Counted from the first letter of the stretch, positions 30,535-49,492 are shown. The stretch is DNA of 64,000 nucleotides from Paracoccaceae bacterium (GCA_965229765.1 CBDDJT010000003.1:967311-1031310), one strand, 5' to 3'. Notes: generated from the sequence alone by a model not told the origin. Translations and numbers: made by a program.

Positions 30535-31860
30535 ATGGCGAACCACCTTTTCGGCCGCTCGCCGGCCTCCCTGCCCGTCGCCGTCCGCGGTGAAGGCTGT
30601 TATATCCACGATGCGCAGGGCCGTGCCTATCTCGACGGCTCTGGCGGGGCGGCCGTGTCCTGCCTCGGCCATTCCGATGAAAAGGTCCGCGCCGCGATCC
30701 GCGCCCAGCTCGACCGCCTTGCCTTTGCCCACACCGGCTTTTTCAACACCGAGGCTGCCATGGGGCTGGCCGACAAGCTGATCGCCAACGCACCCGATGG
30801 AATCGACCGCGTCTACCTGCTGTCTGGCGGATCCGAAGCCGTAGAGGCGGCAATCAAGCTCGCACGCCAGTTTTGGCTCGAAATCGGCCAGCCCGGACGG
30901 CACAAGCTGATTGCCCGGCGGCAAAGCTATCACGGCAACACGCTGGGTGCGCTGGCCGCTGGCGGCAACGCCGGGCGGCGCGAGAATTACGCACCGCTTC
31001 TGGTGGAAACCCACCACATCGACCCCTGCTTCGACTATCGCCACCGCGCCGAGGGCGAGACGCCCGAGGCCTACGCCGAACGCGCCGCAAACGCGCTGGA
31101 ACACGAGATCCTGCGCCTCGGTCCCGAAACCGTGATGGCCTTCATCGCCGAACCCGTGGTCGGCGCGACGGCGGGCGCGGTGCCCCCGGTCGGGGACTAT
31201 TTCCGGCGCATCCGCCAGATCTGCGACCGCCACGGTGTCCTGCTGATCCTTGACGAGGTGATGTGTGGCATGGGCCGCACCGGCACGTTCTTCGCCTGCG
31301 AACAGGACGGGATCGCGCCGGACATCGTGACCATCGCCAAGGGGCTGGGGGCGGGATACGCCCCCCTTGGCGCCATGCTGTGCAGCGCCACCATCCATGA
31401 CGCCATCGCGCAAGGCTCTGGCAGTTTCCAGCACGGGCACACCTATCACGCCCACCCGCTGGCCGCCGCCGCCGGGCAGGCAGTGCTGGGCCGTATCCTC
31501 GACGACGGGCTTCTTGAACAGGTGCGCGCGCGCGGCGACACGCTGAACGCCGCGCTGCACGCCCGGTTCGGCCATCACCCGCACGTGGGCGACATCCGGG
31601 GCCGCGGGCTGTTCCGGGCCATCGAACTGGTCGAGGATCGCGACACCAAGCGCAGCTTCGACCCCGCGCGCAAGATCCACGCCCGCGTCAAGGCGCGCGC
31701 CATGGACGCGGGGCTGATCTGCTACCCGGCGGGCGGCACCGTCGACGGCAGGCGGGGCGACCACGTGCTGCTGGCCCCGCCCTTCATCATCACCGATGAC
31801 GAAATTGACCTTCTGGTCGACCGTCTGGCCGGCGCGGTTGACGCCGCACTGGCCGCCTGA
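30535..31860 (+). CDS. Class III (omega) PLP-dependent aminotransferase
   Basis: GGAAVSCLGHSDEKV, SGGSEAVEAAIKLARQF, LILDEVMCGMGRTG and DIVTIAKGLGAGY (PLP lysine). Confidence 0.85.
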   Translation: MANHLFGRSPASLPVAVRGEGCYIHDAQGRAYLDGSGGAAVSCLGHSDEKVRAAIRAQLDRLAFAHTGFFNTEAAMGLADKLIANAPDGIDRVYLLSGGSEAVEAAIKLARQFWLEIGQPGRHKLIARRQSYHGNTLGALAAGGNAGRRENYAPLLVETHHIDPCFDYRHRAEGETPEAYAERAANALEHEILRLGPETVMAFIAEPVVGATAGAVPPVGDYFRRIRQICDRHGVLLILDEVMCGMGRTGTFFACEQDGIAPDIVTIAKGLGAGYAPLGAMLCSATIHDAIAQGSGSFQHGHTYHAHPLAAAAGQAVLGRILDDGLLEQVRARGDTLNAALHARFGHHPHVGDIRGRGLFRAIELVEDRDTKRSFDPARKIHARVKARAMDAGLICYPAGGTVDGRRGDHVLLAPPFIITDDEIDLLVDRLAGAVDAALAA

Positions 31861-31901: not shown

Positions 31902-33257
31902 ATGTCCCAGGCAGGGGCCACACTGGTCCCTGCCGAAGGACGCCCGCCCATGTTCGCCCCCGCCAGACAGACCCGACCGCCGCGCCGAGACCCCGCGCAA
32001 CACGTCGCGCTGCCGCGGAACGCGGGGTACTTCTTTCCCGCCGCCGCTCCGGCGGAACCACGCTCCGCCGACGCCATCGACGCCCTTGCCCGGGCCCTGG
32101 CCGATCAGCCGCGCCCCACGCCGGACCGTGCACCGATCCCTGCGCTCTATGCCGACTGGGCCGAACTCGTGGCGCGCGATCTGGGCTGCGCCTTCCCGGC
32201 GACGCCCCCCCGGGACGCCGGCGCCGGCGCCGGTGCCGGTGCCAAGGCCGGTGCAGGGCAATCGGACAGCGCGTCCCTGCAAGGCGCCGGCACCGGCCGT
32301 CTGGACCTGTCGCCTGTCTTTGGTGAACCGCGCCTTTCCCACGGCTGGCTGGCAAGAGCGCTTGACCGGGCACAGCGCCGCCTGCTCTCCGCAGCGCCCG
32401 CCGCGGGCCAGTGCGCAGGCACTGCCGAGGCCGCGGGCGCATGGGCCCGCCGTCAGGTCAGCTGGAGCTGGCAATGGCTGGTGCTCAACCAGTTCCTGCC
32501 CACGATCGCGGATGACTGGATTCTGGCCGAGGTGGTCCGGGACGGCGCCCCGCTCTACCGCCAGTTCCGCGCCAGCATGGCGCCCGGACGGACCGGCGAC
32601 CTTCCGGTTCCGGTCGAGTTCAGTTGCGCGGCCTTCGGCTTTGTCGCATCGATGGCGCGGCCCGGCCGCCCCGACCCCGGAATGCCCGGCTTTGCCCTTG
32701 CGGCGCTGCGGGTGCTGGACCCGATGGCAGCTGCGGCGGGCATCGCGACCGGCCCGGCCCCCGGCATCGGGCGCATGGCTTCGACCGCGCGGCGCATCGA
32801 CACCTGCATCGCCCCCACTCCCGACGCCGCCGAACCCGCCGCCGCACTGGCGCGTGACCACCTGCGGGCGGGCCTGCGGATCGACCTTCCCAGTGCACAG
32901 GCCTGCCTCGACGCGCTGGAGGAGATGGGCATCGTCCTGCCGCGTCTCTCGCCCGATGAACTCGCCACGGGCTCCGCCGCCGCCGCGATCCGCGCCGGCC
33001 GCTTCGATCTGGACACACCCCTCTGGTTCTACATCCTCAAAGAGGCGGAGCTGCGCGAACACGGTGCCCGGCTTGGCGCACTGGGAAGCCGGCTGGTGGC
33101 CGAGACACTGGTGGGCATCGTCCAGACCGACCCGACCTCATACTGGCAGGCGGGCGGCTCGGACGCGGGGCGCTGGCACCCGAACGACGGCCCGAAACCG
33201 CTGGCGCGCCCGCTCAGCAGCCTTGAGGAGATCCTGCACGTGGCCCACGCACCATAG
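31902..33257 (+). CDS. Animal-haem-peroxidase-family-like protein, short and apparently degenerate (both haem histidine motifs substituted)
   Basis: Family landmarks are RLDLSPVFG (LDLSxxYG block), WLVLNQFLPTI, PVEFSCAAFGFVASMA, RAGLRIDLPSAQA, and TPLWFYILKEAELREHGARLGALGSRLVAETLVGIVQTDPTSYW. The start is uncertain because the RBS is weak. Confidence 0.6.
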   Translation: MSQAGATLVPAEGRPPMFAPARQTRPPRRDPAQHVALPRNAGYFFPAAAPAEPRSADAIDALARALADQPRPTPDRAPIPALYADWAELVARDLGCAFPATPPRDAGAGAGAGAKAGAGQSDSASLQGAGTGRLDLSPVFGEPRLSHGWLARALDRAQRRLLSAAPAAGQCAGTAEAAGAWARRQVSWSWQWLVLNQFLPTIADDWILAEVVRDGAPLYRQFRASMAPGRTGDLPVPVEFSCAAFGFVASMARPGRPDPGMPGFALAALRVLDPMAAAAGIATGPAPGIGRMASTARRIDTCIAPTPDAAEPAAALARDHLRAGLRIDLPSAQACLDALEEMGIVLPRLSPDELATGSAAAAIRAGRFDLDTPLWFYILKEAELREHGARLGALGSRLVAETLVGIVQTDPTSYWQAGGSDAGRWHPNDGPKPLARPLSSLEEILHVAHAP

Positions 33258-33368
33258 CCGCACCAACGCCCGCGCCCGGCCGCCAAACGGGCTTGCCGGG
33301 CTTCTCGTATCGACTACCCTGACACGGCCAGTTTCCAGATGCCGTGACAAGTGACCCGGAGGACCGAG

Positions 33369-34463
33369 ATGACGACCGCGAACACGTCCAATACATCCAA
33401 CACATCGAACACGTCCAATACCTCGAACACCTCCAACACGTCGAACACTTCCAATACATCGAACACCTCCAACACCTCGGGGATGGAGTTCGCACACGCC
33501 GGCTCTGGCAGTTCGGCGTTTCTCAGCCGCACACTGCTCGACACCGCCGCCGAGGCGACGGAAACCATTGCTCACGCCTCGGTCGACATCGACCCGGCGC
33601 GCATTGCCCCGCGCGACCCCGGCGCCGCCTTCCGCGCCATGAACCCCCGCCACCGGGCGGAACTGCTGGTCAGCACCCTGATGGATGGCGTGGACATCGT
33701 GCCGCTTGGCCCGACCGAGGCCGGGGGCTGGTTCACCGGCGACCTCACGGACCACCAGATCGCCGGGCTGACGCTGGGCGGGACCACCGTGCCCGTGACA
33801 GCGCTGGCGCGCGGCGCCTCGGACGAGGCCTACTGGACACGTCAGCTGCGAGAGGTGCTGGCGCTGGCCTCGGAACGCTGGATCCGCATGGACGAGATCG
33901 TCGCCCAGCAGACCGATATCCTCAGCTACCTCGCCCTGCCCGCGCGGCTGGGGCCGGTGACGCACCCCTGGACGATGGGCTTTCTCGCCGCCGTGCATGA
34001 ATTCACCGTGCGCGTGACGATCCGGGTCAAGGCGATCCATGACATGACCCGCCCCGTGGACTTCGCGCCAGAGGTCGTGCCGGTGATCCAGACGCCGGCC
34101 CATTCCGCATTTCCCAGCGGCCATGCCACGGAATCGCACGCGCTGGCCGAAACGCTTGGCGCGCTCTACGGGCCGCGCACCGGCGCTCTGATCGACCCGA
34201 TATCCGAGCGTATCGCGCTCAACCGTGTGGTGGCGGGCGTGCATTATCCCGTCGATGGCGAGGCGGGGCGCGCCCTTGGCCGCCTGCTGGGCCGGGTTGC
34301 CATCGCCCGGCTGAAGGGAGAGGCGCTGAGCGTGCAACTCACCCCCGTCGCGGGCAGCTGCCGCGCCGCCGGCGCAGAAGGTACCGTGACGCTTGCCGCC
34401 GCGCCGCGCCCGGCGGTCCTCGAATGGATCGCGGCGCGGATCGCCGAGGAACTGGGCGCCTGA
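33369..34463 (+). CDS. PAP2 / vanadium-haloperoxidase-like protein with an N-terminal (Asn-Thr-Ser)x11 repeat
   Basis: GGAGGA lies 5 nt upstream of ATG 33369. All three PAP2 motifs are intact: KAIHDMTRP (Kx6RP), PSGHAT (PSGH) and NRVVAGVHYPVDGE (Rx5Hx3D). I saw no signal peptide or TM segment. Confidence 0.75.
   Translation: MTTANTSNTSNTSNTSNTSNTSNTSNTSNTSNTSNTSGMEFAHAGSGSSAFLSRTLLDTAAEATETIAHASVDIDPARIAPRDPGAAFRAMNPRHRAELLVSTLMDGVDIVPLGPTEAGGWFTGDLTDHQIAGLTLGGTTVPVTALARGASDEAYWTRQLREVLALASERWIRMDEIVAQQTDILSYLALPARLGPVTHPWTMGFLAAVHEFTVRVTIRVKAIHDMTRPVDFAPEVVPVIQTPAHSAFPSGHATESHALAETLGALYGPRTGALIDPISERIALNRVVAGVHYPVDGEAGRALGRLLGRVAIARLKGEALSVQLTPVAGSCRAAGAEGTVTLAAAPRPAVLEWIAARIAEELGA
33381..33479 (+). 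repeat. In-frame 9-bp microsatellite-like repeat encoding (NTS)x11, with synonymous wobble variation
   Basis: The sequence runs aacacgtcc aatacatcc aacacatcg aacacgtcc aatacctcg aacacctcc aacacgtcg aacacttcc aatacatcg aacacctcc aacacctcg. Confidence 0.95.
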
Positions 34464-34471
34464 GGCCGGGG

Positions 34472-36133
34472 ATGGAATTTCGACCGATCTCCCCCGCGCG
34501 CCACCCGCCCGGAACGCTGCCGCGCAACCTGCTGCCGGTGGCGCTGTCCTGCCTGCGGGGTGACGACACCCGAACGCGTGCCCTGATCCCAGCCGAGGGC
34601 ACGGACACCGCCGTGATCTCTGCCGCCGACATCGCCGCCGCCCGGCCCTTTCCCGGCGGCGAGGATCACCTGATCGGTCCGCCCGCCCGGGCCCCCGGCA
34701 GCCTGCACGCCGACGCGCCGCCGGGTCCGCCCGGCCCGCCCCGCCTGCCGCGCGTGGCCATCATCGACATCGGCACCGCCTTCTGGCTGCCTGCCTTCCG
34801 GCGCACCGACGGCACCCCGGCCTTCACCGCCGTCGCGATGATCGAGGCAGAGCCCGACGCCGCCCCCCGCGTGTCGGTGCTGGGCCGCCCTGCGATCGCG
34901 GGTCTGTGCGATCTTTTCGACAGGCACGGCAATGGCGCGGTCGTGGCGCGGCTGGCGCAGGCCTACCCCGGCTCGATCTACGGCGACGGCGGCGGCACGC
35001 GCCCCGCGCTCGGCCCCCGCGGGATGGCGCATGGCACCGCGATGGCCAGCCTGATCCTGCGCGACCGCCCCCTGCCCGGCCTTGTCGCGGTAGAGCTTCC
35101 GGCACAGGCCTATCTCGACCGCTCGGGCGACGTGCTGCGCGGTCTGGCCGTGCCGGCGGTGGCGCAGGCGATGGCGCTTGCCGGCCCCGGGCCCGCGCCG
35201 CTTCACGTCGCGCTGTCCTTTGCCTATCTCGGCGGTCCCTCGCCCGCCGACGGCGACGCCGGCGATCCGCTGCACGCCGCGCTGGAAGCCACGCTCGCGG
35301 CCCGGCAGGGGGACACCTGGCTTTACCTGCCCACCGGCAACCAGCTTCAGTCACGCCAGCACCTGCGCTGCGGCGACATCGCGCCCGGTGCGGGCACCGG
35401 GCCGCTGACCTGGGACATTCCCGGCGCCGACCCGACCCCAAACACCGTCGAACTGCACTGGACCGGCGCGGGTCCGGTCCGCCTGACCCTCACCGATCCC
35501 GCCGGGCAGGCCGCCCATGCCACGCTGTCGCCCGGCGACGTGGTCGCCGCGGGCACGCCCGCCCCGATCGCCGCCGCACATCTGATGGAGCGCGGCGGCT
35601 GGCACAGCCTGCGGATCACGCTGGCGCCCACCCGTGGCCCCAACGCCGCGCCCGCCGGGCAATGGACCGTCGCCCTGCACACCGACCACGCGCTTGGCGA
35701 CCTGCACGGCATGGTGCTGCGCGACGATCCCCCGGGCCTGGCAGAGCTTGTGCGCGCCAGCCGCCAGTCTCGCTTTTTCGATCCCGCCTATCCTCACCGA
35801 GCGCCGAACGGGCTGCCCATCACCGACGATCCCTCGGCACCGCAATCGGTGATCCGGCGGCGCGGCACCGCTTCGCACCTTGTGCTGGGTCAGCGCACCC
35901 GGCGCGTGGCGGTCACAGCGCTGGAACTGGGCCGCCGCACCCCCGGCGACGTGCCCGCGCCCTATGCCGGGCGCCTTCCGAACGGGCAGGATGCCGGCGG
36001 GCTTCTGCCCGTGGCAGTGGGCACCACCCTGCGGCCGGGCATCGTCACACGCACCAGCGGCGGCGGCGCCCATGCCCGGCTGGCCGGAACGTCCGTCGCC
36101 GCGGCCGAGGCGATCCGCATGGCGCTCCGCTAG
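34472..36133 (+). CDS. Divergent S8 (subtilisin-like) serine peptidase-like protein, leaderless
   Basis: Triad-like motifs occur in D-H-S order: RVAIIDIGTAF (Asp ~99), MAHGTAMASLI (His ~187) and LAGTSVAAAEAI (Ser ~541 of 553). GAGG lies 6 nt upstream of ATG 34472, which is 8 nt after the PAP2 stop. Confidence 0.6.
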   Translation: MEFRPISPARHPPGTLPRNLLPVALSCLRGDDTRTRALIPAEGTDTAVISAADIAAARPFPGGEDHLIGPPARAPGSLHADAPPGPPGPPRLPRVAIIDIGTAFWLPAFRRTDGTPAFTAVAMIEAEPDAAPRVSVLGRPAIAGLCDLFDRHGNGAVVARLAQAYPGSIYGDGGGTRPALGPRGMAHGTAMASLILRDRPLPGLVAVELPAQAYLDRSGDVLRGLAVPAVAQAMALAGPGPAPLHVALSFAYLGGPSPADGDAGDPLHAALEATLAARQGDTWLYLPTGNQLQSRQHLRCGDIAPGAGTGPLTWDIPGADPTPNTVELHWTGAGPVRLTLTDPAGQAAHATLSPGDVVAAGTPAPIAAAHLMERGGWHSLRITLAPTRGPNAAPAGQWTVALHTDHALGDLHGMVLRDDPPGLAELVRASRQSRFFDPAYPHRAPNGLPITDDPSAPQSVIRRRGTASHLVLGQRTRRVAVTALELGRRTPGDVPAPYAGRLPNGQDAGGLLPVAVGTTLRPGIVTRTSGGGAHARLAGTSVAAAEAIRMALR

Positions 36134-36240
36134 GGCCCGTCACACCGGATCGGATTTTCCGCCGCCCCGGACCGCAATCGCTGCCTCCGGGGCAGTGGCG
36201 AATGCACCAGTCCGATCGGGTGCGACAGGTCCCGGTCCGT

Positions 36241-37821
36241 TCAGGCCGTCAGCGTCAGCCCCAGACTGCGGAAAGTGTCCAGCGGATAGTCCGGCCGCAT
36301 CAGGTGGCCGATCTCGAAGCCCGGCTCGACCGCACGCAGGCGGGCGGCATAGCGCTCGGCCTGCGCCGTGTCGCCAACCAGCCCCGACAGCGCCACCATG
36401 TAGCGCAAGGCGGGACGGTAGCCGGGCATCCCGATATGGCTTTGCCGGGTGTAATCCAGCGCCTCGTCCACCTTGCCCACGGACAACGCGGCCAGCGCCC
36501 GCTGCATGTGCCAGATGAACTCGTGCCGCAGCCCGCGCGCGGCATCCGACGCCCGGCACGACAGCGCATAGCTGTCGCCGGGGCGGCCAAGCAGCGTCGC
36601 GGCATGGCCTGCGGCGGCCAGCGCATAAGGGTTCACCGCGTCAAGCGCCACGGCCCGTGCGGCAAGGTGCCAGCCCCGGTCCACGTCGCCCTCAAGCTTC
36701 ATGGCCACCTGCGCGGCCAGCGCCAGCACCATCGGGTTGGTCTGCCCCAGCATCAGCGCCTCCCGCGCCAGCTGAAGCGCCTCGTCGGCCTGCCGGCCTG
36801 CATCGGCGCGCAACTCGATCACACTCGTCAGCCGCTGATAACCGCGCAACGCCTGCACCAGCGGCAAGGCGTCGTCCAGCTCGATCAGGCTGGACAGGAT
36901 GTCCTCGGCCGCCGTGATGTCGCGCCTTTGCCCGGTGAACAGCAAGGCCAGCGCCTGCTGCACCCGGAAGAACCCGTTGCCGCGGAAATCGCGCAAGCCG
37001 CGCTCGAAGATCGCCACCAGCACAAGGTTCTGAAAGGCGGAAAATTCGGCGCCCTCGGCGGCGCGGTCCGGCGGGCCGGGCAGATGCGCGCGCCCCGACC
37101 ACAGGAAATGCCCCTGCCGTGGCGAAATCAGGCGCACCATGACCCGAACGCCGCCGGGGTCCACCGCGCTGCCCATCTCCAGCACCAGGTCGGGCGGGGC
37201 GGCATCCCCGGGCACCCGGTCCTCCAGTTCCAGCACGATCGGCCCCTGGTCGGCCAGCCGCCGCGCAAGGGCGTCAACCAGGTCCTCTTCGACCCAGGGC
37301 GCACCGGCGCGCCCGTCCCAGCCCTGCCGCGTGATCCGGATACGCAGCGAACGGCCGGGGATGGCGGGGGCCGCGGGCGCATCCTGCCCCGGCCCGCGCT
37401 GCGCGCCGCGGGCCGCATTCTCGGCGGCGGCCGCAAGCCGCCAGTCCTGGAACCCCGACGCCCCGATATTCAGCTCGGCCAGAAAATCCTCGGACCCGCA
37501 GGCCGGGTCGATCTCGACCCGGACCTCGGCCTCCAGCCAGACAGCCCATTTGTCGGCCCGAAGCACGCCCCGGTAGGGCCCCAGCGCGGTGCGAATGTTG
37601 CTCAGCGCGCGTCGGAAGCTGGCGTTGCCCTTTCCGTCCGGGCTGTCACCCCAAAGCATGTCCTGCAACCAGATGCGCGTGCGCCTGCGTCCCGGAGCCA
37701 GCGCAAGCATGGCCAGGACAGCACGCTCCTTCACCGCGCGCGGCGTCATGGACGCTGATCCCGGACCACCGGCGTGCACACGCACACCTGTGCCCAGCAC
37801 CAGCACCAGGCGGTCTGTCAT
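36241..37821 (-). CDS. Transcriptional regulator: N-terminal winged-helix (OmpR/CadC/SARP-type) DNA-binding domain plus a long C-terminal TPR-like helical repeat region
   Basis: The wHTH pattern is MTPRAVKERAVLAMLALAPGRRRTRIWLQDMLWGDSPDGKGNASFRRALSNIRTAL. The C-terminal half is Ala/Leu-rich helical repeats. The internal ATG 37821 was chosen (MTDRLVLVLG). Confidence 0.6.
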   Translation of the reverse strand: MTDRLVLVLGTGVRVHAGGPGSASMTPRAVKERAVLAMLALAPGRRRTRIWLQDMLWGDSPDGKGNASFRRALSNIRTALGPYRGVLRADKWAVWLEAEVRVEIDPACGSEDFLAELNIGASGFQDWRLAAAAENAARGAQRGPGQDAPAAPAIPGRSLRIRITRQGWDGRAGAPWVEEDLVDALARRLADQGPIVLELEDRVPGDAAPPDLVLEMGSAVDPGGVRVMVRLISPRQGHFLWSGRAHLPGPPDRAAEGAEFSAFQNLVLVAIFERGLRDFRGNGFFRVQQALALLFTGQRRDITAAEDILSSLIELDDALPLVQALRGYQRLTSVIELRADAGRQADEALQLAREALMLGQTNPMVLALAAQVAMKLEGDVDRGWHLAARAVALDAVNPYALAAAGHAATLLGRPGDSYALSCRASDAARGLRHEFIWHMQRALAALSVGKVDEALDYTRQSHIGMPGYRPALRYMVALSGLVGDTAQAERYAARLRAVEPGFEIGHLMRPDYPLDTFRSLGLTLTA

Positions 37822-37992
37822 CTGCTTTACCCCCATCCCGGCGGCCCGGATTCCGGGAACGCACCGGGCCCCAACGGACCGGCATCCAGATTGACGTTGC
37901 GTCAACGCTGCTGCTGCAACGGACCGCCGTCAACCAATCCGAACGCTGCCCGACCACATTTCACCGGCCCGTGTCATTTGGGCAAAAGCTGC

Positions 37993-38901
37993 TCAGGGCC
38001 AGTCCGCGTGCGATCGCTCCGGTGCCCGGGCCAGCCCGCCCCCTGCGCGCAATCGCCGCCGGTAGGTGGCCGGCGGCAGCCCGATGCGCTGCCGGAAGAA
38101 GGCCGAGAACTGGGCAGCCGTGCGAAACCCCAGATGCTGGGCCACCTGATCAACCGTGCGCGCCGACCGCGCCAGAAGGGTCTCGGCCTCGTGAACCAGT
38201 CGTTCATGGATCAGTTGCTGCGGCGGTCGTCCCAGCTCTCGGGTGCAGATGTCGTGAAGCCGGTCCGGCGTCAGGCCAAGGGCCTCGGCATAGCGCGCCA
38301 CCTTCCAGCGGTCGCGGAAATGCACCTCCAGCAACTGGCGGAACTGCCGCAGCGCCTGCGGCGCGGGACCCTGCGTTCCCACCTCGCCCCGCGCCGGCGC
38401 CGCCGCGCGCCACAGCATCACCAGCAACACGCGCACCTGCGCCTCGATCACGGTTTCCGAGCCATCGGCACGCTCTGCCGCCTCGCGCAGGATAAGTCCG
38501 AAAAGCTGGCCCGCCAGCGGGCGCAGTCCCGTCTCGCCATCAAGCGGCAAAAGCACCCGCCGGTCCGCCGTCAGCCGCAGGTCCGTCGCCTCTGGCCGCA
38601 TCCCCAGCGCGCTGGTCAGCGCCCGCTCGCCCAGGATGAGAAGCGCGCCCGCCATCCCCGCCCGCGCAGTAAGCCGCATGTCGTCACGCCAAGGCAGCCA
38701 CAGCAGCGCCGGGCCCGCGATCTCTTCGCTCGCGGCGGCTGCGGTCAGGCGCACGCGCCCCCGGTCCACCAGCACCACGCGCCAGCTCCGCTCGCCCAGA
38801 TCGACAAGCCCGCCAAGCCGACGGTCCTGCAACCCGCCGCGCACCGGTTCGGCGTAAAGCCCCGGCCCGGGACCTGCAAGGAAACCTGAATTCCGTGACA
38901 T
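37993..38901 (-). CDS. AraC-family transcriptional regulator
   Basis: The C-terminal double HTH is VARYAEALGLTPDRLHDICTRELGRPPQQLIHERLVHEAETLLARSARTVDQVAQHLGFRTAAQFSAFFRQRIGLPPATYR. The start is uncertain: ATG 38901 is preferred, ATG 38937 is the alternative. The long track ORF to 39516 is a shadow extension. Confidence 0.8.
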   Translation of the reverse strand: MSRNSGFLAGPGPGLYAEPVRGGLQDRRLGGLVDLGERSWRVVLVDRGRVRLTAAAASEEIAGPALLWLPWRDDMRLTARAGMAGALLILGERALTSALGMRPEATDLRLTADRRVLLPLDGETGLRPLAGQLFGLILREAAERADGSETVIEAQVRVLLVMLWRAAAPARGEVGTQGPAPQALRQFRQLLEVHFRDRWKVARYAEALGLTPDRLHDICTRELGRPPQQLIHERLVHEAETLLARSARTVDQVAQHLGFRTAAQFSAFFRQRIGLPPATYRRRLRAGGGLARAPERSHADWP

Positions 38902-38911
38902 TCCCCAGACT

Positions 38912-38940
38912 TTGACAATATTTTCCCGAATTTCCATATT
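38912..38940 (+). promoter_or_regulatory. Sigma-70-like promoter candidate for the aldehyde dehydrogenase / ABC operon
   Basis: TTGACA lies at 38912-38917, followed by a 17-nt spacer and CATATT at 38935-38940. The element sits in the only AT-rich stretch of the divergent araC/ALDH spacer. Confidence 0.3.
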
Positions 38941-39024
38941 TTCTTTTCGCCCAGACACCCAATCATCCCTGACAACAACAATCAGAGCCGTTCGGCACCG
39001 CCGACTGGCCAGGGAGGATCCCGG

Positions 39025-45634: not shown

Positions 45635-47110
45635 ATGCTCGACGACCTGCACCGCACCAAGACCCTACGGGGGATGTATATCGGCGGCGAATGGCGCCCC
45701 TCGGCGCGCACGTTCGACGATGTGAACCCCTCTGACGGAAGCATCTTCGCCAAGGCGCCAGAGGGCGGCCGGGCCGAGGCGCGCGCCGCGATCGAAGCCG
45801 CCCAGCGCGCCTTTCCCGCCTGGTCCGCCCTGCCCTTCCAGGAACGCGCGCATGCCATGCTGAAAATCGCCGACGTCTGGGAACGCCGCGCCCCCGACTT
45901 CGTCGCCGCCGCCCAGTCCGAAGGCGGCGGCTGGTTCGGCAAGGGCATGTTCGAAGTCGGCTATGTCGCCGAGGTTTTCCGCGCCGCCGCAGGCGTTTGC
46001 TATGGCCCCATCGGCGAGGTGCTGCCTTCCGAGCACGGCAAGGTGTCGACCGCGGTGCGCTATCCGATGGGCGTGGTCAGCGTCATCTCGCCCTGGAACA
46101 TGCCGGGCATCCTGACCTCGCGCGGCTTTGCCTTTCCGATGGCCGCGGGCAATACGATCGTGCTGAAACCGTCCGAGGACACGCCCTATGCCGGCGGGCT
46201 GCTCTTTGCCGAAGTGCTTGAAGAAGCGGGGATTCCCGCCGGCGTCTTCAACGTCGTCACCTGCTCGCGCGACAACGTGCAGGAGATGGGCGACGAACTG
46301 GTCGAGAACCCGCTGGTCAAGGGTATCTCGTTCACCGGCTCCACCCCCGTGGGCCGCCAGATCGCCGCGCGCGCGGGGGCGCATCTGAAAAAGGCCTGTG
46401 TCGAGCTTGGCGGCAAGGACAGCCTGATCGTGCTGGAAGACGCCGACATGGACCGCGCCACAAGCGCCGCCAGCTTCGGCAGCTTCATGCACCAGGGCCA
46501 GATCTGCATGTCGGTCGAGAAGGTGCTGGTGCAGGAAAGCGTCTATCCCGAGTTCCTGCGCCGCTTCGTCGAACGGGCGGCAAAGCTGAAGACCGGCAAC
46601 GTCGCGGACAAATCCAACGTCATCGGCCCGCTGATCAACGACCGGCAGGTCGCGCGGGTGAAGCACCAGATCGAGGACGCGCTGGCAAAGGGCGCCAAGC
46701 TGGCACTTGGCGGCACGGTGCGCGACCGCTTCGTGGAACCCACGATCCTGACGAATGTCACCCCCGACATGGCCGTCTGGCAGGACGAAACCTTCGGCCC
46801 CGTCGCCGTGGTCGTGCCCTTCCGCACGGATGCCGAGGCCATCGCGCTGAACAACGACACGGAATACGGGCTGTCGGCGGGGATCATCACCGCAAACGAG
46901 GATCGTGCGCTGGCCATGGCCGCGCGGCTGGAAACCGGCATGTGCCACGTCAACTGCTCGTCCATCAACGACGAGCCGCACGTTCCCTTCGGCGGCACCA
47001 AGGCCTCGGGCGTGGGCCGGCACGGGGGCCGCTGGTCGATGGAAACCTTCACCGAGACGCGCTGGATCACGCTGGATCGCGGCGGCCGTCCTTTCCCGCC
47101 GGTGTTCTGA
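45635..47110 (+). CDS. NAD(P)-dependent aldehyde dehydrogenase (second copy)
   Basis: AGGAAGGA lies upstream of ATG 45635. Motifs: VISPWNMPG, ELGGKDSLIVLEDAD, and FMHQGQICMSVEKVL (catalytic Cys). Confidence 0.9.
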   Translation: MLDDLHRTKTLRGMYIGGEWRPSARTFDDVNPSDGSIFAKAPEGGRAEARAAIEAAQRAFPAWSALPFQERAHAMLKIADVWERRAPDFVAAAQSEGGGWFGKGMFEVGYVAEVFRAAAGVCYGPIGEVLPSEHGKVSTAVRYPMGVVSVISPWNMPGILTSRGFAFPMAAGNTIVLKPSEDTPYAGGLLFAEVLEEAGIPAGVFNVVTCSRDNVQEMGDELVENPLVKGISFTGSTPVGRQIAARAGAHLKKACVELGGKDSLIVLEDADMDRATSAASFGSFMHQGQICMSVEKVLVQESVYPEFLRRFVERAAKLKTGNVADKSNVIGPLINDRQVARVKHQIEDALAKGAKLALGGTVRDRFVEPTILTNVTPDMAVWQDETFGPVAVVVPFRTDAEAIALNNDTEYGLSAGIITANEDRALAMAARLETGMCHVNCSSINDEPHVPFGGTKASGVGRHGGRWSMETFTETRWITLDRGGRPFPPVF

Positions 47111-47916
47111 TGGCGGCGACCTGGGAAAGCGGCCCGCTGCTGAAGGGCAAGACGATCGTCGTCACCGGCTCTGCCTCGGGCATCGGGCTGGAAACCGCGC
47201 GGCTGTGCACCAAGCTTGGCGCCACGGTGCTGGGCGTGGACGTGACCAAGCGTTTCGACCATGTCGAGGAGTTCTACCGCGCCGACCTGACGGACCCGCG
47301 CACCATCGACGCGCTGGTCGATGCGCTGCCTCAGGGCATCGACGGGCTTGCCAACATCGCCGGGCTTCCGCCCACCGCCCCGGCGGAAAAGGTGTTGAAC
47401 GTCAACCTCTTCGGGCTGAAGCGCCTGACGCTGGGCCTCATCCCCAAGCTGTCGAAGGGCGCCAGCATCGTCAACCTCGCCTCGCTGGCGGGCTTCGGCT
47501 GGCCGCAATCGGCAGAGGCGATCAAGGCCAGCGAGCACGCGGACATGGATGCGCTTGGCCCCTTCATGGACCGATTTGAGATCACCAACGCGGGCGGGCG
47601 CAGCTATTTCTTTTCCAAGGAAGCACTGATCGTCTGGACAATGCAGAACCGCTGGACATGGCGTGACCGGGGCATCCGGATGAACACCGTCAGCCCCGGC
47701 CCGGTCGATACCCCGATCCTGGGCGACTTTCTTGAAACGCTCGGCGCCCGCGCCGAGGAGGACGCCCGCGTGATGGACCGCCCCGGCACGCCGCAGGACA
47801 TCGCGCCCGTGGTCGCCTTTCTGCTGTCGGACATGACCAGCTGGATCCGTGGCACCAACATCCCAGTCGACGGGGGCATGTCGTCGAACATCCTGTGCGA
47901 AATGCACGGGCACTAA
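47110..47916 (+). CDS. Short-chain dehydrogenase/reductase (coniferyl-alcohol-dehydrogenase-like SDR subgroup; the subgroup is tentative)
   Basis: The ATG overlaps the preceding TGA by 1 nt. Motifs: VVTGSASGIGLETA (TGxxxGxG), YFFSKEAL (YxxxK) and NTVSPGPVDTP. Confidence 0.8.
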   Translation: MAATWESGPLLKGKTIVVTGSASGIGLETARLCTKLGATVLGVDVTKRFDHVEEFYRADLTDPRTIDALVDALPQGIDGLANIAGLPPTAPAEKVLNVNLFGLKRLTLGLIPKLSKGASIVNLASLAGFGWPQSAEAIKASEHADMDALGPFMDRFEITNAGGRSYFFSKEALIVWTMQNRWTWRDRGIRMNTVSPGPVDTPILGDFLETLGARAEEDARVMDRPGTPQDIAPVVAFLLSDMTSWIRGTNIPVDGGMSSNILCEMHGH

Positions 47917-47932
47917 CGGAGGAGACCGAGAA

Positions 47933-49492
47933 ATGTCGGCCCTGGCCTGGATCATCCTTCTGATCGCGATCGTCGCCGTCCTGGTGGTGCTTGCGGCATG
48001 GTTCTACGAACGCGCCACCAACGAGGTGAGCCTTGTGAAGACCGGCGTCGGCGGCCGCAAGGTCGTGATCGACGGCGGCACGCTGGCGATCCCCTATTTC
48101 CACGAGATCACGCGCGTGAACATGCAGACTCTGCGATTGTCGGTGGCGCGAACGGGCGACCAGTCTCTTATCACCAACGACCGCTTGCGGGTGGACGTGG
48201 GGGCCGAGTTCTACGTCTCGGTCCAGCCCGAGGCCGAGGCCATCGCCCGCGCCGCGCAGACGCTGGGCAAGCGGCTGTTCCAGCCCGACCAGTTGCGCGC
48301 GCTGATCGACGGGATGCTGGTGGACGCCATGCGGTCCGTCGCGGCGCGGCTGACCATGGACGAGTTGCACGAGAACCGCGCCCAGTTCGTGGCCGAGGTG
48401 CGCGGCGCGCTGGTCGAGCCGCTGGGCCGCTACGGGCTTCAGATCGACAGCGTGTCTCTCTCGGCGCTGGATCAGACGCCGTTTTCGGCGCTGGACGAGA
48501 ACAACGCCTTCAACGCGGTCGGTATGCGCAAGCTGGCCGAGGTGATCGCCAAGTCCAAGAAGGAACGCGCCGAGATCGAAAGCGACAGCGAGGTCAGCGT
48601 GCGCCGCGCCGCCATGGAAGCGGCCAAGCGCAAGCTGGAAATCGACCTTGACCAGCGCCGCGCGGAAATCGCCCAGACGCAAGAGATCGAAACGTTGCTG
48701 GCCGCGCAGCTGGCTGAAGTCGCTCAGAAAAAAGCCGACAGCGAGCGCACGGCGGCGCAGGCGCGCATTCGGATGGAAACCGATATCCAGGCCGCCGACA
48801 TCGCGCGCGAACAGCAGATCCGGGAGGCCGAGATCGCCCAGTCCCGCACGCTGGAACTGGCCGAACGCGACCGCCAGATCAAGCTGAGCGAGAAAAGCCA
48901 GGAGGAAAGCCGCGCCCAGGCCGATGCCGACACCGCGCGCGCCGAGGCGGTAAAGGCCGCCGAAGCGGTGCTGACCGCGCGCCAGATGGCCGAGGCAGAG
49001 CGGCGCAAGCGCCTTGCCCTGATCGCGGCAGAGGAGCAGGCCGAAGCCGCCGCCGCAAAGGCCCGCATCACGGCGGCCAGCGAGAAGGCTACCGCAGCCG
49101 ACCGCACCGCCGCGCGGCGCGAAGAGGCAGAGGCGATGAAGGCCATGGAACTGGCCCGCGCCGAGGCCACCCGCGCCCGGATCGAGGCCGAGAACGCGCG
49201 CTCTGACGCGATCGTGGCGATGGAACTGGAAAAGGCCCGGCTGGAGGCGATGCCGCGCATCATGGCCGAGATGGTCAAGCCCGCCGAGAAGATCGACCGC
49301 ATCAGCGTCAACCACATCAGCGGCGGCCTGCGCGACCGGGGCGACGGGGCAGCGCCCCTGTCGCCGGTGAACCAGACCATTGAATCGATCATGGACATGG
49401 CGCTTCAGCTTCCCACCCTGCAGAAACTGGGCGAAACGGTCAGCGCGAACCTGTCCGGCGTGTCCGAAAAAGGCGCGAAATCAGGCGACTAA
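47933..49492 (+). CDS. Flotillin / SPFH (band 7) domain protein
   Basis: GGAGGAGA lies upstream of ATG 47933. An N-terminal TM helix (WIILLIAIVAVLVVLAAWFY) and an SPFH core are followed by a long Glu/Ala/Arg coiled-coil tail. Confidence 0.8.
   Translation: MSALAWIILLIAIVAVLVVLAAWFYERATNEVSLVKTGVGGRKVVIDGGTLAIPYFHEITRVNMQTLRLSVARTGDQSLITNDRLRVDVGAEFYVSVQPEAEAIARAAQTLGKRLFQPDQLRALIDGMLVDAMRSVAARLTMDELHENRAQFVAEVRGALVEPLGRYGLQIDSVSLSALDQTPFSALDENNAFNAVGMRKLAEVIAKSKKERAEIESDSEVSVRRAAMEAAKRKLEIDLDQRRAEIAQTQEIETLLAAQLAEVAQKKADSERTAAQARIRMETDIQAADIAREQQIREAEIAQSRTLELAERDRQIKLSEKSQEESRAQADADTARAEAVKAAEAVLTARQMAEAERRKRLALIAAEEQAEAAAAKARITAASEKATAADRTAARREEAEAMKAMELARAEATRARIEAENARSDAIVAMELEKARLEAMPRIMAEMVKPAEKIDRISVNHISGGLRDRGDGAAPLSPVNQTIESIMDMALQLPTLQKLGETVSANLSGVSEKGAKSGD

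Follow-up and report, generated by a model that had tools for sequence, protein, structure and literature searches.

In the RRNPP systems (Rap-Phr, PlcR-PapR, NprR and AimR-AimP), a short encoded peptide is paired with a TPR receptor that has a DNA-binding or enzymatic output. The pro-peptide is secreted and re-imported to the cytoplasmic receptor, whose output is of the XRE-type HTH or phosphatase kind, and Phr peptides are matured by the S8-type proteases subtilisin, Epr and Vpr. In the agr and comQXP pherotypes, hypervariable DNA extends across the peptide and the part of the receptor that interacts with it. Csp proteins serve as proteases with a regulated or sensing role and switch on a zymogen that is their partner, CspB stripping the propeptide from pro-SleC. 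Short-period repeats at an N-terminus can be trimmed stepwise, as in promelittin by DPP-IV and α-factor by Ste13, and tripeptidyl peptidase II is an S8 enzyme. Here we describe a module, comprising an enzyme with a repeat tail, a TPR sensor and a subtilase, whose features hint at a novel type of signalling unit that is peptide-coded and works inside the cell.

The window that we analysed, i.e., a stretch of 64,000 nucleotides from a Paracoccaceae bacterium, carries four genes of interest. Gene A (31902-33257, + strand; 451 aa, with a possible alternative start at Met17, 31950) would encode a degenerate homologue of animal haem peroxidases; B (33369-34463, + strand; 364 aa), a soluble PAP2-type phosphohydrolase or phosphotransferase; C (34472-36133, + strand; 553 aa), a divergent Csp-like S8 subtilase; and D (36241-37821, - strand; 526 aa), which converges on C, a wHTH-TPR sensor-regulator. 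B, C and D are core components 1, 2 and 3 of the module. From the coordinates, the gaps are 111 nt between A and B and 8 nt between the stop of B and the start of C. Third-position GC is 0.82-0.86 across the four genes, which supports the view that all four open reading frames are coding. When the window was compared with a 92%-identical relative (L010), dN/dS was 0.19 for A, 0.085 for B, 0.12 for C and 0.16 for D, and purifying selection acts on all four. An earlier note on this DNA had claimed that export signals were absent, and indeed no transmembrane segment or signal peptide was found in A-D (maximum 19-residue Kyte-Doolittle values of 1.05-1.54); the four products are predicted to be cytoplasmic. 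The note had also placed the four genes, two gaps, a hairpin and an (NTS)11 repeat correctly, and its fold assignments for A, B, C and D are all borne out by Pfam, profile, homology and model evidence. The hairpin, an inverted repeat (gcccggc-N14-gccgggc; 33274-33301, + strand) in the A-B spacer, is probably incidental. It was rejected as a terminator or regulatory RNA: folding of the spacer was unremarkable compared with shuffled sequences (z = -0.32), no T-tract terminator was called there, the hairpin had no match in Rfam, and its arms are not kept in L010. A search for a plasmid origin yielded only spurious low-complexity matches.

B matched the Pfam family PF01569 (PAP2) with 33.8 bits (cut-off 27.2). 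Its motifs K221-X6-R228-P, P249-S-G-H252 and N285-R286-X5-H292-X3-D296 are invariant in 26 homologues, as are the individual PAP2 residues that they contain (K221, R228, P249-S-G-H252, R286, H292 and D296); motif 3 has Asn (N285) in place of the Ser of SRX5HX3D. The closest PDB match to B, by both sequence and fold, was the soluble acid phosphatase of P. aeruginosa (7F17). A structure of B predicted with database proteins (pLDDT 82) gave a TM score of 0.74 to 7F17 versus 0.26-0.34 to vanadium haloperoxidases (target-normalised), so that the modelled fold appears nearer to the soluble class A acid phosphatases than to the haloperoxidases. Homologues of B carry PF22778 (VCPO_2nd), and the B profile matched VBPO 1QI9 with an E value of 4e-12. 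B is thus likely to be a soluble PAP2-type phosphoryl-transfer enzyme, and its catalytic site is intact. Its database annotation reads only "membrane-associated phospholipid phosphatase".

The earlier note had also hinted that the repeat N-terminus of B might matter, and this turned out to be the central feature of the module, with tails in about 80 proteins. In the window, B begins with a disordered tail, M-TTA-(Asn-Thr-Ser)x11, whose 11 units (33381-33479, + strand) are perfect as protein and are written in 9 different 9-mers; TRF reported a period of 9 with 76% matches, and pLDDT was below 50 over residues 1-49. A perfect N-terminal repeat tail was present in 17/17 close homologues of B and in 62/62 metagenomic homologues with complete N-termini, the latter with 4-23 perfect units each. 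Among intact N-termini, the tails contain from 3 to 23 identical units, mostly of three or four residues and in one case of six, and about 45 different units occur across B proteins. The start codons of tail-bearing B genes have Shine-Dalgarno sites. Gene callers often place the start of B downstream of the repeat, and through this annotation artefact many database entries lack the tail.

Synonymous sites are scrambled between units of identical protein sequence, including AGC/TCN serine switches, and comparison of these coding sequences demonstrated that the perfect repeats are evidently under selection at the protein level. Copy numbers do differ among relatives (GTH x10 versus x23; SGGY x9 versus x10), as would be expected if the NTS tract were a slippage-prone DNA repeat, variable in length or phase, with no function as protein and with unrelated genes beside it. 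We regard this as extremely improbable: the units are perfect as protein while heterogeneous at synonymous sites in the DNA, the position of the repeat is conserved in about 80 proteins, and every long locus shows synteny of the neighbouring genes. The unit scrambling and the synteny already contradict slippage, and phase variation by slipped-strand mispairing was rejected because of the same synonymous scrambling. Two functions for the tail itself were also considered. An N-glycosylation sequon (N-x-S/T) is attractive for the alpha clade and was rejected in view of GYS, SGE, SGM, FKD, NGV, GHE, SGGx and other units. As with promelittin, α-factor and TPP II, there is a short-period repeat at the extreme N-terminus of B and a serine protease of the subtilase clan encoded beside it; the difference is that the tails have periods of 3, 4 and 6 behind a constant three-residue cap. 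Since some tails have period 3 and others period 4, a simple fixed-step exopeptidase is unlikely, and the periods 3, 4 and 6 behind a constant cap make any single enzyme of this type unfit and weaken the idea of a "fuse" consumed strictly by a tripeptidyl peptidase in register with the N-terminus. The units are perfect within one protein, yet they switch wholesale between close relatives. The side chains found in the units include I, F, Y, M, K, E, H, Q and N.

For C, no match was found in Pfam (including PF00082) or, by sequence, in the PDB. More distant family members, retrieved by a search with the C profile, exceed the PF00082 cut-off of 21.8 bits (P0136, 53.7 bits; P0162, 42.2 bits), so the homology of the window protein to S8 enzymes is transitive. 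D99 (in IDIG; codon 34766-34768), H187 (HGT; 35030-35032), N290 (GN; 35339-35341) and S541 (GTS; 36092-36094), all on the + strand, make up the S8 set and are invariant in 11 homologues. The S8 catalytic order Asp-His-Ser and the oxyanion Asn are thus present, and by this measure the site is intact. An AF2 model (pLDDT 83, pTM 0.88) is predicted to have the subtilisin-like α/β fold, and its top fold matches in the PDB were CspA, CspB and CspC, with E values of around 1e-14 over about 500 columns, a probability of 1.00 and TM scores of around 0.5. The alignment with CspB, CspA and CspC is nearly full length, and C has a prodomain-like N-terminal region and a beta-rich segment (residues 297-416) between N290 and S541. 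The possibility that profile searches would place the proteins in well-characterised families, which the earlier note had named as an outcome that would speak against it, did not materialise for C, which falls in no characterised family.

D consists of an OmpR/ToxR/AfsR-type wHTH, a middle domain and C-terminal TPRs. The wHTH, the output domain, covers residues ~11-81 (37579-37791, - strand); over residues 11-80 the D profile matched ToxR (E = 4.4e-5) and AfsR (E = 6.3e-5), and the EmbR wHTH was also matched. The TPR region, presumably the sensor that binds the tail or a peptide, covers residues ~340-520 (36262-36804, - strand), with TPR matches over residues 344-460, and the profile also matched consensus TPR proteins in the PDB. 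Trans_reg_C was found in 12/12 D homologues (best E = 9.4e-6), as were TPR families, while the window protein alone was sub-threshold (E = 0.061). BTAD was found in 0/12 close homologues and 1/45 distant ones. By domain content, D of the window would fit the OmpR/ToxR/SARP-type wHTH regulators and, with BTAD absent, not the SARP family proper. In Betaproteobacteria-like relatives a class III cyclase replaces the wHTH, and there the homologues of the sensor part are cyclase-TPR proteins; Guanylate_cyc was present in 16/45 D-like partners, and a Crp-like cNMP-binding regulator adjoins the module in 22 loci. These architectures demonstrate what is evidently an output-domain swap, between wHTH and cyclase.

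B, C and D are clustered far beyond what chance would predict. The trio is conserved in about 100 loci. All 26 of the 26 metagenomic loci whose flanks reach at least 2.5 kb on each side contain it, as do about 20 genomic loci, all six contigs found through C and those genome loci that are of sufficient length for a judgement, and D was found in every related locus that had enough flank. Carriers of the module include Jannaschia pohangensis DSM 19073. At least six gene orders or orientations occur, which argues for functional rather than inherited linkage. At least 391 relatives of B were also detected in metagenomes, and C-like proteins form about 2,000 clusters. The suggestion that B and C are a functional pair is supported by the 8-nt gap and by synteny across loci, their adjacency being kept in most arrangements. 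Absence of synteny from every other genome, which the earlier note had named as a further outcome that would speak against it, was not what we observed. The cassette as first drawn, A-B-C, did not survive, because the conserved unit is B-C-D. D, which had been described as a convergent regulator lying against the others, is indeed a convergent wHTH-TPR protein, but it belongs to the core rather than the periphery, and its output is exchanged for a cyclase elsewhere.

A had no Pfam match of its own and is 38% identical to the product of L003 5016-6794, which matches PF03098 (An_peroxidase) with an E value of 2.6e-14. The DHD, RNDEN and RFGH motifs are kept in the A-like proteins of L003, L042 and L052. 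In A of the window, ARD stands in place of DHD (containing the distal His) and GFVAS in place of RFGHS, and the GDxRNxEN segment has been lost, so that the protein, which retains neither the distal nor the proximal His and has no catalytic Arg, is a pseudo-enzyme. The label "degenerate" given to it earlier was therefore apt, all the haem ligands having been lost; its dN/dS of 0.19 indicates that the gene is still under selection. A (halo)peroxidase chemistry shared by A and B, which had been proposed as their link, is not supported, given this ligand loss and the acid-phosphatase-like fold of B. A-like genes adjoin the trio in only 6 of ~103 loci, in three different positions or arrangements, and A is an occasional accessory outside the conserved core.

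The flanks of the trio are mostly unrelated housekeeping or ordinary metabolic genes. Variable enzyme-like neighbours do occur, i.e., the haem peroxidase in 6 loci, a PLP-decarboxylase-like gene (in 4 loci of Rhodobacteraceae, immediately upstream of B), YcaO, a DUF900 hydrolase and amine oxidases, together with an EamA exporter in 3 loci. They would fit a RiPP-like pathway in which the tail serves as a core peptide in many copies, attached to its own enzyme, C frees units of three to four residues, neighbours tailor and export them and D, as the regulator sited in the cluster, senses the product; the identical multi-copy units recall multi-core precursors, and the wHTH of D resembles AfsR/SARP-type regulators. 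We consider such a pathway unlikely, because no accessory enzyme is conserved family-wide, most loci have no exporter or signal peptide, the side chains of the units have no common chemistry, and the core has no RiPP recognition element or known RiPP enzyme.

The distribution of the module is patchy and its genomic sites are variable, one locus (L007) being flanked by ParB-methylase and terminase genes and another (L001) by a transposase. Together with the hypervariable cassette described below and a 2026 paper (PMC13431035) in which certain clades of diffusible PAP2 proteins are predicted to act in conflict, this could be taken to mean that the diffusible PAP2 protein is a conflict or anti-phage effector restrained by its tail, which the protease and TPR sensor trigger on infection, unit diversity reflecting an arms race. 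We give this little credence. The 2026 paper names as its clade the class A phosphatases, which are secreted, and the B-C-D context is not described there; PADLOC-DB 2.0 gave no match for A, B, C, D or the accessory proteins E, F and G; 0/40 PAP2 loci on viral contigs carry C or D, all being generic PAP2 cores; most loci lie among ordinary metabolic genes; and the outputs are transcription or cNMP, with no obvious toxin. A defence system was rejected on the PADLOC and viral-contig results. Nothing relevant was found in the literature on the repeat strings or the domain combination, and the module is described by no literature, Pfam, PADLOC or viral match.

The evidence that connects D to the tail comes from alleles of the cyclase type, in which the last ~100 residues of the D TPR region and the B tail form a hypervariable cassette. 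The DNA of these alleles is 95-100% identical, with only 58-68% identity over ~500 bp spanning the 3' end of D and the B tail; in L068 and L083, for example, the D core is 99% identical and the last 98 residues only 52%. The median difference (C-terminal minus core) was -1 for pairs with the same unit (n = 12) and -20 for pairs with different units (n = 64; Mann-Whitney p ~1e-6). These comparisons demonstrate that the C-terminus of D evidently co-varies with the tail unit in cyclase-type alleles. Because the hypervariable end of cyclase-type D physically adjoins the B tail, recombination hitch-hiking could produce part of the co-variation. In D of the wHTH type, to which the window belongs, no hypervariable segment was detected among the few close pairs available. 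Alleles with different units (F, M, A) have C proteins that are 94-97% identical, which indicates that the variable residue is not read by C.

That C does not vary with the unit would also suit a mechanism of zymogen activation only, in which the tail is a propeptide keeping B inactive or unstable, C removes it, and D is just a local regulator or source of cNMP that does not contact the tail. Csp subtilases, which C matches in fold, are known to activate a hydrolase zymogen in this way, B and C are tightly coupled (8-nt gap; adjacent in most arrangements), and the PAP2 site is invariant. We nevertheless think it improbable that this is the whole explanation, since it leaves unexplained the wholesale switching of perfect, identical units between close relatives, the co-variation of the last ~100 residues of D with the unit, and the retention of D despite the output swap and in every gene order.

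We favour, tentatively and at somewhat less than an even chance, a model in which B-C-D is a self-contained cytoplasmic module where D reads the B tail, C processes it and the output switches. The C-terminal TPRs of D would bind the repeat tail or units released from it. C, as an active Csp-like subtilase, would either sever the tail from B or divide it into units, in the manner in which Csp removes the propeptide of pro-SleC or S8 enzymes mature Phr peptides for TPR receptors. Cleavage would shift D, and possibly also the PAP2 enzyme, between states, so that transcription is changed; the N-terminal domain of D would be the output, by DNA binding here and elsewhere by cNMP synthesis, read by the adjacent Crp-like regulator. 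The physical binding of tail to TPR, the cleavage by C and the direction of signalling are inferred. The model assigns no role to the invariant PAP2 active site, which counts against it. We are more hesitant still about the wider proposal that this is an unrecognised class of proteobacterial intracellular signalling, with a perfect array of units of three to four residues as the address on the N-terminus of a PAP2 enzyme, a matching TPR receptor that reads it and has transcription or cNMP as its output, a dedicated Csp-like subtilase that gates it, and alleles that diversify as specificity cassettes of tail and receptor, like quorum-sensing pherotypes but within the cell. If correct, it would represent a new bacterial way of encoding specificity, i.e., a peptide "barcode" on an enzyme read by a TPR sensor, and a natural counterpart to designed pairs of repeat peptides and repeat proteins. 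A family that counts at least 391 metagenomic B relatives and ~2,000 C-like clusters, C having no Pfam family, would then gain a function; regulated proteolysis of the Csp type would extend beyond spore formers, and synthetic biology would have ~45 natural, apparently orthogonal tail-receptor pairs at its disposal.

How, then, do the components compare with known systems? B shares with the class A acid phosphatases ("diffusible PAP2": 7F17, PhoN, PhoC, EB-NSAP) the fold, the complete KX6RP / PSGH / (S)RX5HX3D motif set and the lack of membrane helices. Those enzymes are secreted and of ~220 aa, whereas B is predicted to be cytoplasmic, has an additional beta-domain, a C-terminal extension and the repeat tail, and is always accompanied by C and D. 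A is homologous to bacterial members of the animal haem peroxidase family (PF03098), but in the window it lacks the haem-ligand residues and is accessory to the module. The best structural matches to C are the clostridial germination proteins CspB, CspA and CspC (PDB 4I0W, 9PR9, 9PR8, 6MW4), with which it has in common the S8 order D-H-N-S and the absence of a secretion signal and, as modelled, would share a large beta-rich insert ahead of the catalytic Ser and a prodomain-like N-terminal region. Sequence identity is only 13-16%, the hosts of Csp proteins sporulate while those of C are non-sporulating Alpha- and Betaproteobacteria, and the Csp partner is a cortex hydrolase while that of C is a PAP2 enzyme, so that a Csp-type role in spore germination with SleC does not apply to C. 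D resembles OmpR/ToxR/SARP wHTH-TPR regulators in its N-terminus, which matches the ToxR, AfsR and EmbR wHTH, and, through the D-like partners with Guanylate_cyc, class III nucleotidyl cyclases with TPRs; it differs from SARP, ToxR and cyclase-TPR proteins in having no BTAD, NB-ARC or membrane anchor, and its sensor part, unlike theirs, is dedicated to the B-C pair.

With RRNPP systems, B-C-D shares the combination of an encoded short peptide, an S8-type protease and a TPR receptor with an output. It differs in being wholly cytoplasmic, with neither signal peptide nor Opp-type import; in a peptide that is a multi-copy array fused to an enzyme; in a receptor whose output is a wHTH or a cyclase, whose middle domain is FlgO/TolB_N-like and which has no sequence relationship to RRNPP receptors; and in its proteobacterial hosts. 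With no signal peptide on B, no exporter or Opp linked to the module and these outputs, B-C-D would fall outside the RRNPP systems, and the resemblance appears to be one of logic only. The hypervariable DNA that spans the end of D and the B tail has its parallel in agr and comQXP.

Third-position GC and ORF analysis of the window (GC content about 70%) placed four genes where the earlier note had put them, i.e., A, an animal-haem-peroxidase homologue (31902-33257, forward strand), B, a PAP2 protein with an N-terminal repeat tail (33369-34463, forward), C, an S8 subtilase resembling the Csp proteins (34472-36133, forward), and D, a wHTH-TPR protein (36241-37821, reverse). A and B are separated by 111 nt, and B and C by 8 nt. 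All four proteins were checked, and none has a signal peptide or hydrophobic segment, in agreement with that note. The inverted repeat that it described at 33274-33301 is present in the sequence. The A-B spacer folds no better than shuffled sequences (z = -0.32), no T-tract terminator was called for its hairpin, a search of the hairpin against Rfam matched no family, and its arms are not retained in the closest relative; it looks incidental.

The module is flanked by ordinary metabolic genes (sulfatase, class III aminotransferase, aldehyde dehydrogenase, LIV-type ABC transporter). Both in the window (30535-31860) and in its closest relative, L010 (704-2041), 41 nt separate the end of the class III aminotransferase gene from A, which may therefore share a transcript with that gene instead of with B. 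On the other side, the approximately 1.2 kb from the start of D to the aldehyde dehydrogenase gene (37822-39024) contain no convincing gene: an ORF of 371 aa (37774-38889) is Arg/Pro/Gln-rich with no Pfam match, and the region's sigma-70-like sites are confined to an AT-rich patch (38895-38940). Further along, GC skew switches sign at about 46000-48000, being negative up to about 46 kb and positive beyond about 48 kb, so that cumulative skew reaches a minimum; there were no DnaA-box matches near this switch.

The fold assignments made previously were correct for all four proteins, and the active sites of B and C are intact. B scores above the Pfam PAP2 threshold, its PAP2 catalytic residues are all invariant in 26 homologues, and its residues 1-49 are predicted to be disordered. 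Among solved structures, class A phosphatases, including the soluble P. aeruginosa acid phosphatase 7F17, come closest to it, by sequence as well as by fold (TM 0.74). C had no match in Pfam, NCBIfam or PDB sequences. It can still be placed in S8, because D99, H187, N290 and S541 are invariant among its homologues, because its confident model (pLDDT 83, pTM 0.88) aligns with the clostridial germination subtilases CspB, CspA and CspC over about 500 columns (E ~1e-14), and because distant relatives in its profile search (206 cluster representatives at E <= 1e-30; 1,928 at E <= 1e-10) pass Pfam Peptidase_S8. At the profile level, D combines a ToxR/AfsR/EmbR-type winged helix with C-terminal TPRs (residues ~340-526).

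A and B had been taken to share a theme of (halo)peroxidase chemistry, which is not supported. A, although it has homologues among the bacterial animal-haem-peroxidase proteins, no longer has the distal His, the catalytic-Arg segment or the proximal His, while vanadium haloperoxidases match B more weakly than do class A acid phosphatases. A dN/dS of 0.19 against the L010 orthologue argues that A is not a dead gene. It is found in a minority of loci only, and in three positions (upstream of B, or divergent from either B or D). A second peroxidase homologue, in Jannaschia pohangensis (L012, 13194-14567), has decayed independently of the window lineage, with the distal His replaced by Asn and the RFGH segment deleted; the copies in L003, L042 and L052 keep the canonical motifs. 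On the best-supported reading, the haem-less A and the other accessory genes are add-ons or targets specific to particular lineages.

B, C and D, by contrast with A, travel together, both on contigs with C homologues and in a scan of one genome per species. Among the organisms that carry them are Alphaproteobacteria MAGs, Rhodobacteraceae and an isolate, Jannaschia pohangensis DSM 19073. A metagenome scan with a B profile gave at least 391 relatives, from which 80 loci were fetched; C and D were both present in all 26 loci with at least 2.5 kb on each side, which display at least five gene arrangements besides that of the window. The proposed pairing of PAP2 protein and subtilase therefore stands, but the membership of the cassette does not, the conserved set being B-C-D.

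Elsewhere A is replaced by an E-F-G trio including a trypsin-like protein, a PLP-decarboxylase-like gene, YcaO, a DUF900 hydrolase, amine oxidases or EamA exporters. A RiPP-like pathway, in which the module would serve a peptide metabolite, appears unlikely to us. The E-F-G set recurs upstream of B in the place of the peroxidase homologue (L001, 5192-8784; L004, 5243-8727; L005, 5190-8676; L007, 3223-6798; L024, 871-3563). E has about 290 aa, F about 490-560 aa, with faint NAL1/Trypsin matches and, in L024, a signal peptide, and G about 315-375 aa. The PLP-dependent decarboxylase-like gene lies directly upstream of B (L014, 1980-3239; L016, 7242-8492; L017, 3871-5145; L018, 5046-6332) in Rhodobacteraceae modules whose repeat unit has a basic middle residue (NRT, NKT, NHS). 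L016 additionally encodes an amino-acid permease, and in L014, L016 and L019 there are EamA exporters on the far side of D. In L005/L006 (GCA_000732285.1, JDSH01000009.1, 10001-13475) the module looks pseudogenised or poorly assembled, with C in pieces of 439 and 175 aa and D in pieces of 63, 307 and 174 aa; many hut genes in the flanks are fragmented too.

The N-terminus of B in the window reads M-TTA-(NTS)11, and the importance attached to this repeat was justified; no other feature of the module is as unusual. All 62 complete N-termini of the wider B family carry perfect units, from 4 to 23 of them. The close homologues (16/16) have an ATG start codon with a Shine-Dalgarno site ahead of it; in 15 of them three residues are followed by 5-14 perfect units (NTS, NTT, NNS, NRT, NKT, NHS or NKS), and the sixteenth carries (FKD)4. 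Across the wider family, units of three residues account for 45 cases, units of four for 23 and a unit of six for one, and there are about 45 distinct units, including GHE, GTH, GSQ, GGI, SGA, SGW, AGY, GYS and SGGx (where x is I, V, F, Y, M, A, T or L). Between close relatives the unit can change throughout the tail: SGGI versus SGGF, and SGGM versus SGGA, occur on B cores with 89-92% identity. In the window, nine distinct 9-mers encode the 11 units, and in L044 there are ten distinct sequences for ten units, with both AGC and TCN serine codons. Units that are perfect in the protein yet heterogeneous at synonymous positions indicate selection maintaining the repeat at the protein level, not recent slippage, and a meaningless simple repeat is scarcely credible. 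Automatic gene calls often start B homologues past the repeat (299 rather than 363 aa in L001; L005 and entries P0013-P0041 are also affected, P0016 and P0019 beginning at internal Met codons), which explains why many database proteins lack the tail. The window's own B was not among the results of a word-index search.

On Betaproteobacteria-like contigs, more distant relatives of B have as neighbours a class III cyclase-TPR protein and a C-like subtilase of larger size. The sensor part is common to D and the cyclase-TPR protein, so that it is the output that is swapped. A Crp-like cNMP-binding regulator, convergent to the cyclase-B-C operon, follows the module in 22 loci (including L020, 11107-12471), and a GerE/LuxR-type protein likewise follows in 18; both look as if they read the cyclase output.

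Within the cyclase-type SGGx alleles, the F, M and A forms have C proteins that are 94-97% identical, so that C does not discriminate the variable residue of the unit. The core of D is 95-99% identical, and its last ~98 residues only 52-68%. The DNA of L068 (SGGM) and L083 (SGGA) is 95-100% identical except for about 500 bp (58-68%) that run from the 3' end of D through the spacer into the B tail. Identity of the D C-terminus was 84% (V-V), 77% (Y-Y) and 76% (A-A) for pairs sharing a unit, and at most 71% for pairs with different units (41 pairs, cyclase-type SGGx); three more subgroups follow the same rule. When core identity was 60% or higher, the median difference between C-terminal and core identity was -1 with the same unit (n = 12) and -20 with different units (n = 64; Mann-Whitney p ~1e-6, the pairs not being independent). 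Tail and D C-terminus thus co-vary as a cassette. Hitch-hiking contributes to this, because the two segments are adjacent in the cyclase-type arrangement, and the same pattern was not detected among the few close allele pairs of wHTH-type modules such as that of the window. Variation of this kind is the signature of polymorphic signal-receptor loci such as agr and comQXP, and it makes the C-terminal TPRs of D the putative partner of the tail.

The best-supported reading, which we propose tentatively and as a possibility that falls short of an even chance, is that the module is a cytoplasmic three-component switch. The TPR end of D would bind the tail of B, or units released from it; the Csp-like subtilase would process the tail; and D would turn the state of the tail into transcription, through its wHTH in the window's module. 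In cyclase-type modules the counterpart of D would instead produce cNMP, read by the adjacent Crp-like factor. The direction in which information flows is part of this proposal, as are the cleavage and the binding. A rival reading, in which C does nothing but activate B as a zymogen, we regard as doubtful. A conflict system seems distinctly improbable.

No relevant paper on this combination was found, a paper on diffusible PAP2 clades (PMC13431035) does not describe the B-C-D context, no PADLOC model matches, and the viral contigs scanned contained no copy of the module. Each protein falls in a known fold family (PAP2, S8/Csp-like, wHTH-TPR), but their combination is undescribed in the literature and databases searched; what defines it is the perfect oligopeptide tail, universal among its members, together with the tail-TPR specificity cassette. 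In logic only, and without homology, it comes closest to the RRNPP peptide-TPR receptors and to the action of Csp on pro-SleC.
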